Positions 55,985-58,442 of a stretch of DNA of 64,000 nucleotides are shown in pieces (positions within the stretch are counted from its first letter, which is position 1; each line of letters begins with the position of its first letter). Source of the stretch: a phage; sequence record PQ724393.1, one strand, 5' to 3'. Under the pieces are notes generated by a model that ran no database searches, had not been told where the DNA came from, and saw only the letters and a program-made list of their open reading frames with translations. The position numbers and the translations under genes were made by a program.

Positions 55985-56273
55985 ATTTTTTCCAGTCAGA
56001 AATCATATGAATCTCTTGGTCATACGTCAAGAGACTGCGAGTAATAATACCCTTGCACGGCCCAGAGATGAACTCGAGAGTGAAGTAAGGAACCTGTTTC
56101 ATTAATCGGATGCTTGGGGCATGGCATCTAAAACGAGAGCCCTTAAAGGGCCCTGACATGAATACATATTCTAATGGATAGAAATAAGCATATTCGAAAT
56201 TTGCAGTAAGGTCCTCTCTTCGAACCTTACGTGAGAAATAACAGAACTCAAAAAGTTCTTCATCAGTCATCAT
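55977..56273 (-). CDS. hypothetical protein (98 aa)
   Basis: Track ORF. Confidence 0.5.
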   Translation of the reverse strand: MMTDEELFEFCYFSRKVRREDLTANFEYAYFYPLEYVFMSGPFKGSRFRCHAPSIRLMKQVPYFTLEFISGPCKGIITRSLLTYDQEIHMISDWKKYV

Positions 56274-56797
56274 TGCATTCCTATCACAAAGAACAGCGGC
56301 AGAGGTTTAGAACCCTGGCACATAAATTTGTTAATCATTACCTGGTAAGCTTCATAGAACTTATCCATCGATGGAAGGCGCATTGGCTCTTCGATAATAA
56401 TCAATAATCGAGTAACTGATAGACCACGATACTTATGGAAGTTATCTTCGTCTAAAAATGATCGCACGGTATCATATACAATAAACCCAGGACCTTCTAC
56501 TTGAAGATGTGGATGAGCCTTAGAAACCCTTTTTATTACATTACAGATTTCGCGTGACCGGTGCGAAGAACTCGACATAACAATCACATCATTACCCTTG
56601 GAAACCCAATCAGCTGCGAACTGGGCAAGGGCACTTGTTTTACCTGTTTGGCGTCCGCCGTCAAGTCGAAGAGTACCAAACTCTTGCATTCTTGAAGTAG
56701 GTTCGTACCAGGTGTATTGGTTTGAGTCTAATCGTTCAATGGCGCGTTCAGCGAAGGCGTGCATTAAGGTTAGATAAATGGGAGTTAAAAATTTCAT
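56270..56797 (-). CDS. P-loop NTPase-like protein (175 aa)
   Basis: Walker A GGRQTGKTSA; Walker B-like LLIIIEEP. Confidence 0.5.
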   Translation of the reverse strand: MKFLTPIYLTLMHAFAERAIERLDSNQYTWYEPTSRMQEFGTLRLDGGRQTGKTSALAQFAADWVSKGNDVIVMSSSSHRSREICNVIKRVSKAHPHLQVEGPGFIVYDTVRSFLDEDNFHKYRGLSVTRLLIIIEEPMRLPSMDKFYEAYQVMINKFMCQGSKPLPLFFVIGMQ

Positions 56798-56946
56798 AGT
56801 GGTCTCTTAGTTGTGGGGCCATTCCTTGGCACATAATTCATCCCTTTCTGCATTTACCCATTACCGCACTTGGGCTCGACCTTATTACAGGTTGGTGGGA
56901 GTCCCTCACGGAATTGTGAGGTCCAGGTTGCTCCCATTTTTAAAGA

Positions 56947-57306
56947 TTAAAGATGGTCGAGTGCCGGATTATGAGGCTTTTCTGCTTTAGCAGTATTTTT
57001 GTGCCAATCCGATTTAGAAACACGAATTGCATCCGCACCGTAAGAGCTCTTAAGGAGGCCCTTTTTATTGTAAACACTTATAGAAGTAAGGGTGTCACCA
57101 TTCCAAGTAGCATGGACGAAGTTGGATTTAGATTTAAGTTCTTTAGCCAGGCTCTGGTTGGTAGCCATAGAAGCAAAGTCTTTACCTGTAACTTTAAAAA
57201 CTTCAGATGGGTTCAGCCCTTCTTTAGCCTTAGCCAATTGTTCAGGAGACATAGCTTCGTTAATGCGCTGAGTAGATTCAGTAATAAATTGTTGGTAAGT
57301 TTTCAT
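56947..57306 (-). CDS. ipII: internal head protein, IpII-like
   Basis: N-terminal MKTYQQFITE matches T4 capsid-targeting sequence (MKTYQEFIAE); 119 aa. Confidence 0.6.
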   Translation of the reverse strand: MKTYQQFITESTQRINEAMSPEQLAKAKEGLNPSEVFKVTGKDFASMATNQSLAKELKSKSNFVHATWNGDTLTSISVYNKKGLLKSSYGADAIRVSKSDWHKNTAKAEKPHNPALDHL

Positions 57307-57320
57307 ATTATTCCTTAAGT

Positions 57321-57350
57321 TGATAGAAGTATTCTACCACGGATTTAATT
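57321..57350 (-). promoter_or_regulatory. putative promoter upstream of ipII-like gene
   Basis: ATTTAC-18-TAGAAT. Confidence 0.45.
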
Positions 57351-57765
57351 AAGCGTAAATAGCCTTGCCATAGTGTTTGTACCAGGTAGGACGTTGTGCA
57401 ATTTTTTCATCCAAACGGGTTTGTGAAATAGCGATAGAAGCTTCGTGAGGAGCATAATCACCACGGAATTCCTGAGGAATATCACTAATGTCCTGGACCG
57501 TAGTATCTTTGATATTAAAGCCACGTTTTAAACATTCGGCTATAAGCTCGATTTGACGCTTACGTAAAAATTCAAGCTTATCGTAAAAGAATGTAACATG
57601 GCCTGCGCCAAGGATAAAAGTAGGACTGATTTTGAAATCACGGACACGTTTACCATTAGCAACATGCTTACGAACTGCACCGAAAACACGTGGTAATTCA
57701 CGATATTCAGCCATTAAGTGTTGGTCAGCCAATTCAGATACTAAGGTAAGGTTGATACGAGTCAT
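57349..57765 (-). CDS. denV: endonuclease V (pyrimidine-dimer DNA glycosylase)
   Basis: 138 aa; [67 protein letters not shown]... nearly identical to recalled T4 DenV. Confidence 0.95.
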
Positions 57766-57792
57766 TTTTAATCTCCTGTAGTTGATAGGTCT

Positions 57793-57821
57793 ATAGTATC
57801 ATGTCTACAGGAGATGTAAAC
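57793..57821 (-). promoter_or_regulatory. conserved early promoter upstream of denV
   Basis: Same 41-nt block as 55457 promoter. Confidence 0.65.
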
Positions 57822-57845
57822 AACTTTTATCAAGTATCGGCTTTA

Positions 57846-58442
57846 TTAATTACCACGGGCTGCATTAGCAACGGCGTAAGCGTACTGAACATTAGCGTCT
57901 TTAAACGTACCTTTAGAGGTATCTATTTCTGCCTTAAAGCCACCTTTAGCCATAACATCAGCAAATTCTTTACGGAAAGCCATTGCATCAAGACCTTTCC
58001 ATGATGATTTGTGCTTGGCAAATTCAAGACCGGCGAAGTTGACAGCCTTAGCCAATTTATTATCAATAGTCCATTTACCTGCTTTAGGTACAACTACCGG
58101 GCCTTTTTGTTTAGAGAACAGTTTTAAATTCCAGCGACGAAGGTCGCCGTCAGCTTTAACAAAAGCTGCGTCCAAGTTACTAGCAACAACATCCTGAATA
58201 TGGCCAAATTTAAGCCCATCAGCTTCAATATTTAGGTCGTTACGCCAGCGAAGTCCTTCCCAGGCGAAAGCTTTAAAGTCAGAAGCTTTTGTAGCTAAAT
58301 ACCGTTCAATAGGAGCTGTTTTAGCGTCAAAACCATTTCCTGGGTTGTCAACGCCATTTCCTCGGTAGGTCCACTCATCTTTATTAATGCCTTGGACCTT
58401 TCCTACAGAAGCTTCGGCGATAAATTCTTTATACGTTTTCAT
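57846..58442 (-). CDS. ipIII: internal head protein, IpIII-like
   Basis: 198 aa; N-terminal MKTYKEFIAEA capsid-targeting sequence. Confidence 0.65.
   Translation of the reverse strand: MKTYKEFIAEASVGKVQGINKDEWTYRGNGVDNPGNGFDAKTAPIERYLATKASDFKAFAWEGLRWRNDLNIEADGLKFGHIQDVVASNLDAAFVKADGDLRRWNLKLFSKQKGPVVVPKAGKWTIDNKLAKAVNFAGLEFAKHKSSWKGLDAMAFRKEFADVMAKGGFKAEIDTSKGTFKDANVQYAYAVANAARGN

Follow-up and report, generated by a model that had tools for sequence, protein, structure and literature searches.

A probable structured RNA upstream of vs.8 in T4-like phages recurs in unrelated virulent phages

We have analyzed an intergenic gap of 149 nucleotides (nt) in a phage genome, sequence record PQ724393.1, of which a stretch of 64,000 nt was available (the window; positions are counted from its first letter). 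The gap lies between an internal-protein (ip)-like gene and a homologue of vs.8, and its minus strand very probably specifies a genuine conserved structured RNA, as judged from compensatory base changes in relatives. The core of this element recurs among virulent phages that infect Enterobacterales and Pseudomonas, in five or more groups that are otherwise unrelated. Judged against Rfam 15 and the searchable literature it is a new RNA family, and across lineages it behaves as a self-contained RNA module without a constant protein-coding neighbor. Quite possibly, the RNA is autonomous and binds a conserved partner.

Results

Conservation of the element among phages

A 171-nt query spanning the gap gave matches in 971 of 50,697 phage records, most of them T4-like phages of Escherichia, Shigella, Klebsiella, Yersinia, Salmonella, Citrobacter and Enterobacter. 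Lack of conservation in related genomes had been named in the initial annotation of this DNA as evidence that would speak against a functional segment; the segment is instead kept in about 970 records. T4-type matches end before the vs.8 start codon and past the upstream stop codon, so that the element forms a conserved island whose flanks cannot be aligned by blastn. Between the window and T4, 46 of the 48 core nucleotides are identical, as against 60% nucleotide (38.8% protein) identity for vs.8 and 92% nucleotide identity for denV.

Some 45 nt of the element, CCAACCUGUAAUAAGGUCGAGCCCAAGUGCGGUAAUGGG, recur with 90-97% identity in Vequintavirus (rV5-like phages), a Phapecoctavirus-like phage, Edwardsiella phage PEi20 and EcoPhCCP1. 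Further members came from pattern searches in IMG/VR and in JGI/ENA metagenomes, among them Pseudomonas putida phage pf16 (Chakrabartyvirus) and several contigs of environmental origin. Two further pattern matches, in loci L079 and L080 (L numbers are our locus handles), were dismissed as chance, since the covariance model of the core, R1, gives them no score. A pattern scan of 185,579 bacterial and archaeal species, with one genome per species, returned no match, nor did blastn against 5,426 complete E. coli genomes, and a host origin of the element was rejected on these grounds.

In some loci the core is followed in tandem by a diverged second one, some 60-110 nt further downstream: PEi20 (L030, 1607-1652), L091 (9135-9180), L089 (916-962) and L090 (after 274-321). 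In the second copy of L090 the helices are kept and little of the sequence is.

Predicted architecture and compensatory base changes

The initial annotation had described a nested double stem on the minus strand, and this is present exactly as it was written, within gap borders (stop at 56947, start at 56797) that we confirm. The strand reads GGGAG-CAACCUGGA-CCUCAC-AAUUCC-GUGAGG-GA-CUCCC, followed by GGUCGAGCCC and GGCCCC (coordinates in Table 1). That description had caught the 5' hairpin of the element; the best-conserved part, a three-helix core at 56852-56899, lies directly downstream of it. R1 finds this core as a single copy in the 64-kilobase (kb) window, where the next-best match scores 7 bits. 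Loops and joining strands hardly vary within the core.

Helices were set by hand and scored by pair counts, since RNAalifold run on a MAFFT alignment missed most of them. The 43 distinct cores collected first align without gaps throughout. In the covariance-model alignment of 54 distinct cores, the innermost pair of helix P2 (columns 6-48) is CG in 31, GC in 9, UA in 9, AU in 4 and GU in 1, and is unpaired in none. The second P2 pair is CG in 43 cores and GC in 10, and a pair in P3 switches from A-U (51 cores) to G-C (three cores). The covariation score of the core is 0.232, compared with 0.076 for shuffled alignments, of which none of 500 reached the observed value, and 0.013-0.071 when partner columns were slid. 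An alternative helix in Phapecoctavirus-like copies, CUAACCU/AGGUUAG, was discarded because it is lost when P2 covaries.

T4-like elements were divided by their 5' hairpin domain into a short version (A-type; the window and T4) and a longer version (B-type; the JS10, Klebsiella, Salmonella S16 and Edwardsiella types). Among the 10 distinct A-type sequences 99.3% of cells are paired, versus 31-49% with the partner column slid. In P1, GGGAG/CUCCC is replaced by GGGAA/UUCCC (pair 10-40 is AU in seven and GC in three), and in P1c, CCUCAC/GUGAGG is replaced by CCUCAU/AUGAGG or CCUUAU/AUAAGG (pair 23-34, CG9/UA1; pair 25-32, UA5/CG2/UG2). In the 19 B-type elements the P1 basal stem, a two-pair helix P1b (pair 29-65: CG10, AU8, GC1) and a pseudoknot all covary. 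The pseudoknot joins the P1 5' internal loop to the tail 6-8 nt past P2 through four covarying pairs, among them 26-122 (CG12, AU3, UA3, GC1) and 27-121 (GC13, CG4). Outside the T4-like phages, loop-to-tail pairings of different sequence were read by eye (Table 1).

B-type elements also hold an extra near-invariant segment in the P1 domain, CUCUCCUCAUGAAC...GUCCUCUGAGUGA(A/U)G (A2 columns 31-63, e.g. L005 4170-4205), which A-type elements do not have. It is pyrimidine-rich and resembles an anti-Shine-Dalgarno sequence.

The alignment of relatives that the initial annotation had proposed as a check thus reveals compensatory base changes. Its suggestion of a small or structured RNA gains support from this covariation, from conservation across phage families and from homologues in transfer RNA (tRNA) arrays.

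Composition, strand and explanations at the DNA level

The gap had also been called unusually structured and GC-rich. A structure is indeed kept by compensatory changes; the G+C content is only mildly raised (0.46, versus 0.35-0.49 across the surrounding 3 kb), and the folding energy does not exceed chance against dinucleotide shuffles (z = +0.54 on the minus strand and -1.30 on the plus strand). With near-average composition and a stability like that of shuffled sequence, the segment would not stand out on these measures alone.

The core alignment contains 67 G-U cells, including the invariant G-U that closes P4, and the opposite strand would read these as A-C mismatches. Together with the co-orientation of the element with genes and tRNAs, this argues that the minus strand is the functional one.

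Two plus-strand or short-motif explanations had been offered initially, a RegB-related site and an intrinsic terminator on the plus strand. In their favor, a GGAG stands at 56934, and ATTTTTAAAG comes after the complement of P1 when the plus strand is read. The GGAG is the only one and sits in the 5' strand of helix P1, where T4 and most relatives (T4 and 7 of 10 A-type sequences) have GGGAAC. The T-run corresponds to the A-rich spacer that follows the stop of the ip gene, and it is not conserved, T4 reading ...UUCCCUUAUGCAU on the plus strand; no terminator was called on either strand, and the strand evidence favors minus. We regard both explanations as scarcely credible.

An element acting as DNA could mark a conserved boundary of recombination or of cassettes within the hyperplastic internal-protein region, be the target of a homing endonuclease, or form a mobile regulatory cassette like the promoter-early stem-loops (PeSL) discussed below. 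It does lie at the edge of a variable block of ip genes, a direct repeat brackets it at a spacing of 190-215 nt in Phapecoctavirus-like phages, and a near-identical core in unrelated phages suggests horizontal transfer. A recombination anchor, however, requires sequence identity and not covariation, whereas here helices and a pseudoknot are kept by compensatory changes, with G-U pairs on one strand only. Orientation with respect to transcription is strictly conserved (44 of 44 loci with vs.8, 26 of 26 with tRNAs), and the element contains no promoter. A purely DNA-level role is thus very improbable, and given the covariation it survives only as an added role in cassette mobility.

Reading frames and the annotated start of T4 vs.8

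In the T4 RefSeq record, vs.8 (NP_049732, 219 amino acids; NC_000866 64253-64912; 3254-3913 in locus L004) starts 26 nt after denV and spans the element, which is found at 64.8-64.9 kb inside the annotated open reading frame (ORF). In the window, the corresponding upstream frame hits a TGA within the element, and of 13 distinct T4-like sequences just two keep this frame open across the core. Between the core and the vs.8 start lie 62, 63, 64, 70 or 71 nt, a spacing that does not preserve the frame. The homologous start in T4, at ATGAGAACAUUUUUAAC, would give a protein of 179 amino acids, in line with the window (175 amino acids) and with RB69-type records. With the frame interrupted and the spacing variable, the T4 extension is best read as an annotation artifact, and the N-terminus of T4 vs.8 appears to be over-extended by about 40 codons across the RNA element.

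The initial annotation had considered the gap to be noncoding, and this agrees with its ORFs, which measure just 27-28 amino acids and whose frame is not kept in relatives. A 27-amino-acid ORF with an ATG (56854-56937) is best read as chance. That the segment codes for protein, either through this ORF or as the N-terminal extension annotated in T4, is a remote prospect: besides the broken frames and spacing, the core also occurs inside tRNA arrays, and its substitutions compensate within helices.

Gene order in the window and in T4

The source phage is T4-like (Dhakavirus-type), with Escherichia phage fDHCT2 as its closest overall match (98% identity over 14 kb) and Dhakavirus/JS10-type phages among its other relatives. 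All genes of the region lie on the minus strand. Their order is ipIII-like, denV, ip-like, element and vs.8 in the window, and ipIII, ipII, denV, element and vs.8 in T4. The gene 5' of the element differs among relatives, being denV or one of various internal-protein genes, while the element and vs.8 remain together. Pfam and PHROGs gave no function for vs.8 or for the neighboring gene in Vequintavirus, and ARAGORN found no tRNA gene in the window. A terminator scan of 56200-57900 called no site on either strand. The promoter-like site nearest to the element (57359-57331) is a candidate start for a transcript reading through it. With neither promoter nor terminator of its own nearby, the RNA would here be part of a polycistronic message.

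The 3' extension specific to T4-like elements, GYGCCANGGAAYGGCCC, holds two GGA motifs 18 nt apart on the minus strand (56841-56843 and 56823-56825), the second in the loop of GCC-AAGGAAU-GGC. The pair resembles the arrangement of paired CsrA-binding sites.

Table 1. Features of the element and its surroundings in the window, and loop-to-tail pairings (5' strand / 3' strand) read by eye in other phages
Feature	Position	Strand	Remarks
ipIII-like gene	58442-57846	-	
denV	57765-57349	-	
Promoter-like site TTTACG-17-TAGAAT	57331..57359	-	ahead of ip-like gene; consensus match only
Internal-protein-like ORF, upstream of gap	56947..57306	-	119 amino acids, N-terminus MKTYQQF..., stop at 56947
Intergenic gap with RNA element	56798..56946	-	149 nt; matched in ~970 phage records
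vs.8 homologue, downstream of gap	56270..56797	-	175 amino acids, P-loop GKT motif, PHROG 1488 (function unassigned), start at 56797
P1 domain	56897..56935	-	compensatory changes in A-type relatives
P1 basal stem GGGAG/CUCCC	56935-56931 / 56901-56897	-	
P1 5' internal loop CAACCUGGA	56930-56922	-	
P1c distal hairpin CCUCAC / loop AAUUCC / GUGAGG	56921-56916 / 56909-56904	-	
Proposed pseudoknot 5' strand CUG, inside P1 internal loop	56924..56926	-	position and homology to B-type elements
Three-helix core (covariance-model match)	56852..56899	-	R1 67.4 bits, E 3e-24
P2 ACC/GGU (3-4 base pairs)	56896-56894 / 56858-56856	-	
Bulged A after P2 5' strand	56893	-	
P3 ACCU / 6-nt loop GUAAUA / AGGU	56892-56889 / 56882-56879	-	
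J3/4 CGA	56878-56876	-	
P4 GCC / 7-nt loop CAAGUGC / GGU	56875-56873 / 56865-56863	-	invariant sequence
J4/2 AAUG	56862-56859	-	
Proposed pseudoknot 3' strand CAG, tail 5 nt after P2'	56848..56850	-	position and homology to B-type elements
T4-like-specific 3' extension	56818..56843	-	GYGCCANGGAAYGGCCC conserved in A- and B-type T4-like elements
GGA in 3' extension	56843-56841	-	
Predicted 3'-extension hairpin GCC / loop AAGGAAU / GGC	56830-56828 / 56820-56818	-	helix invariant
Pseudoknot pairing, pf16			CUGAA / UUCAG
Pseudoknot pairing, L084			CUGAA / UUCGG
Pseudoknot pairing, EcoPhCCP1 (44-kb Escherichia phage) and similar contigs			CUCCGG / CCGGAG
Pseudoknot pairing, Phapecoctavirus-like			CGGA / UCCG
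Pseudoknot pairing, L076			CGGUU / AGCCG
Pseudoknot pairing, L086			AACCA / UGGUU
Pseudoknot pairing, L089			AGCCAA / UUGGUU

Genomic context outside T4-like phages

Among the 43 non-T4-like loci, 26 have a co-oriented tRNA gene within 1.2 kb and none has one in the opposite orientation; several of the 17 loci without a nearby tRNA are short or cut at a contig end. At L076 the element fills the slot between a tRNA and a tRNA-like sequence that scores below threshold, and at L084 it starts 46 nt past a tRNA-Ser, the tenth tRNA of the array, and is followed by a terminator. In pf16 the stop codon of a coding sequence precedes it, and a Rho-independent terminator is annotated on its other side. 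In EcoPhCCP1 and contigs of similar type (44 kb) it comes after the endolysin gene and ahead of a terminator, except that L067, one of these contigs, carries it between two terminators. In Vequintavirus A51.2 (L002, 2130-2165), a near-consensus sigma-70 promoter-like sequence read by eye, TTGACA-17-TAAAAT, separates the element from the next ORF. This ORF belongs to PHROG 3330 and has a very basic N-terminus. No vs.8 was found in the non-T4-like lineages.

Phapecoctavirus-like phages and contigs of 46-70 kb show a direct repeat, TGC(T/C)(C/A)T(T/A)(T/A)(T/C)CGTTGTG, whose copies lie about 190-215 nt apart and bracket the element (L034 at 10518 and 10715; also L036, L041, L043 and L073). Each copy forms the 3' side of a long hairpin whose other arm, on the 5' side, reads CACAACAGGTAAGAGCA(C/T)TG. 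The repeat holds TGCTCTTT, presumably the start of the rrn boxA antitermination motif. The tRNA region of locus L003 (OR584014, 'Pseudomonas phage PsgM04F') shares 82-85% identity with Phapecoctavirus records from Escherichia and Acinetobacter. With these relatives the alignment begins only 185 nt into the query, and the element is missing from them at that place, which points to a variable cassette within the Phapecoctavirus group.

Discussion

Comparison with described RNAs

The covariance-model scan suggested at the outset was run as cmscan against Rfam 15 with permissive filters, on the window (E<=10) and on T4, Vequintavirus, PsgM04F and nine further loci (12 loci from seven lineages, E<=1). 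No family matched the element in the window or in the 12 related loci; elsewhere in these sequences only tRNAs and chance matches were returned, and no tRNA-clan match overlapped the element in any locus scanned. Full-text literature searches for the core sequence and for vs.8 gave no match, and general searches on phage non-coding RNAs turned up no description of it.

T4 itself encodes two RNAs of comparable setting, rnaC and rnaD (species 1 and 2). Like the non-T4 copies of the element, these are non-tRNA RNAs within a tRNA array, co-transcribed with tRNAs and without an assigned function. They differ in having no relation to it in sequence or structure, and the T4 element lies about 6 kb away from them, at 64.8-64.9 kb. 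A relation was also excluded directly, as R1 finds nothing in T4 67.4-75.5 kb (L049) and the sequences of both RNAs are without the core. ROOL and GOLLD are likewise orphan structured RNAs of phages and prophages that often adjoin tRNA genes. These are several hundred nt long, multimeric and found in other hosts, whereas the element measures about 90-170 nt and has no Rfam match to them. Structures of both are the subject of PMC12286853.

The PeSL cassettes of T4-type phages, which Arbiol et al. are said to have described in 2010, reportedly consist of a terminator-like hairpin and an early promoter. They too are conserved non-coding stem-loops in plastic early regions of these genomes. The element differs from them in having neither promoter nor terminator, in its multi-helix covarying fold and in being common to non-T4 phages; in the window, 56798-56946 contains no promoter-like site and no late or MotA motif.

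The element may have been swept up in bulk predictions. The phage 'csRNAs' were drawn from IMG/VR, the same collection in which we found the element, and 8,495 structured RNA candidates were predicted from it comparatively (Fremin et al. 2023, PMC10690425). The main text of that article mentions no such motif, which may nonetheless have an uncharacterized entry in the supplementary alignments.

Mimicry of three cellular RNAs was considered and set aside. The P3 loop (CUGUAAA) resembled a tRNA-Tyr anticodon loop, and T5 tRNA-Tyr counters retron Ec78 according to a preprint (10.1101/2023.03.15.532788). Once the search pattern was relaxed, GUG, AUA and GCA also occurred in place of GUA, and the loop has 6 nt and not 7. 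Mimicry of the 16S rRNA 530-loop or of RNase P RNA had been suggested by the shared short words GCGGUAAU and GUGCGGUAA; about one shared 16S 8-mer is expected by chance.

A possible function, and what weighs against it

We tentatively favor an RNA that acts in its own right and not as a switch for a single gene. Such a role is suggested by the lack of a fixed gene partner, by the tRNA and terminator flanks, and by conservation that centers on unpaired nucleotides held by a pseudoknot. In the phage of the window the element would be made as part of the early ip-like/vs.8 message, for which the promoter-like site ahead of the ip-like gene is a possible start; elsewhere, the nucleases that process tRNAs would free it from tRNA precursors. 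A rigid pseudoknotted junction would then hold out its invariant nucleotides for a conserved partner to recognize. The residence of copies in tRNA islands hints at a connection with the metabolism of tRNAs or of translation, or else with defense nucleases directed at tRNAs. Candidate partners would thus be a host or phage protein or RNA tied to that metabolism or, alternatively, a tRNA- or RNA-directed defense nuclease for which the element serves as a decoy.

Several points weigh against this interpretation and against parts of the fold. The partner is purely conjectural. Classic labeling of stable RNAs in T4 reportedly revealed only tRNAs and species 1 and 2, which speaks against an abundant stable RNA in that phage. 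Within and adjoining the gap, no promoter-like, late-promoter, MotA-box or terminator-like site was found. P4 never varies in the main subfamily (the 54-core alignment), and the search patterns themselves fixed several of the invariant positions. The A-type counterpart of the pseudoknot, CUG with CAG, has three base pairs and is invariant; being so short and constant, it is assigned in the window by homology with the B-type. In the T4-like phages, moreover, vs.8 is downstream and co-oriented in all 44 loci, in 38 of them 62-104 nt from the end of the core.

For P4 the diverged second copy at L090 has, by eye, a clean GAGAC-CGC-GUCUC hairpin at the corresponding position, and this copy alone suggests the helix.

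A more specific form of the proposal is that the element represents an undescribed class of phage 'tRNA-island RNA' built on a pseudoknotted three-helix core, kept and exchanged among unrelated virulent phages of Gammaproteobacteria including T4, and serving either as a decoy or inhibitor of immunity that targets tRNAs or other RNAs, or as a new self-cleaving ribozyme. We consider this rather unlikely as a whole.

A leader of vs.8 or a ribozyme

The constant synteny with vs.8 in all 44 T4-like loci makes a leader function in that lineage a live alternative, if an unlikely one. In this case the element would be a cis-acting 5' untranslated region that controls translation or mRNA stability of vs.8 through a protein, for instance one binding the GGA-containing 3' hairpin, or through a small ligand. 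Consistent with this, vs.8 stays constant while the upstream gene varies between denV and various ip genes, the 3' extension is conserved among T4-like elements, and the build of the RNA, a junction and a pseudoknot with invariant unpaired nucleotides, is like that of an aptamer. The constant position in a 5' untranslated region expected of a riboswitch or leader holds in T4-like phages and fails across lineages, however, since the core is also found in phage groups without vs.8, in tRNA arrays and without a constant downstream gene. Elsewhere it occupies 3' untranslated regions in which terminators come directly after the fold and do not overlap it, and in Vequintavirus the promoter-like site stands between the element and the next gene. 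Among T4-like phages themselves, L015 has an ip gene inserted between the element and vs.8, and no conserved pairing that sequesters the Shine-Dalgarno sequence or start codon of vs.8 was seen by eye. Nor was an expression platform, i.e. alternative pairing with a terminator or ribosome-binding site, seen by eye in the T4-like phages, pf16, L084 or L086, where no formal search was made.

Small self-cleaving ribozymes and pseudoknotted riboswitch aptamers resemble the element in their short helices around a junction, their pseudoknot and their conserved unpaired nucleotides. A scattered distribution among phages is typical of twister, pistol, hatchet and hammerhead RNAs, and the contexts of the element are similarly scattered, bound to no particular gene and occasionally in tandem. 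With a compact pseudoknotted junction of about 50-100 nt and some 20 near-invariant unpaired nucleotides, it could represent a new class of small self-cleaving ribozyme, or a processing module with a defined cutting site in polycistronic or pre-tRNA transcripts, a role that placement in tRNA arrays would suit. Against this, no Rfam ribozyme model matched the window or the 12 related loci even at E values of 1-10, and no covariance model for ribozymes or aptamers does. A cleavage site cannot be deduced from the sequence, just as no ligand or expression platform is identifiable, and for tRNA arrays RNase P and RNase E already do the processing. We judge a ribozyme to be quite unlikely.

Conclusions

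T4 is the most thoroughly studied phage, yet the element has been read there as protein (vs.8), and in many of its relatives it is unannotated. Immediate outcomes would be a corrected annotation of T4 vs.8 and an additional RNA family for the databases. As a compact and genetically tractable object in T4, the element offers access to the role of non-tRNA RNAs in phage tRNA islands, a question asked since species 1 and 2 of T4. Should its partner prove to be a defense nuclease, or the RNA prove catalytic, the interest would be considerably higher. A core that is nearly the same base for base in T4-like, rV5-like and Phapecoctavirus-like phages, pf16 and Escherichia phages of about 44 kb, and that travels in tRNA arrays, speaks for a need shared by virulent phages which an RNA would meet.

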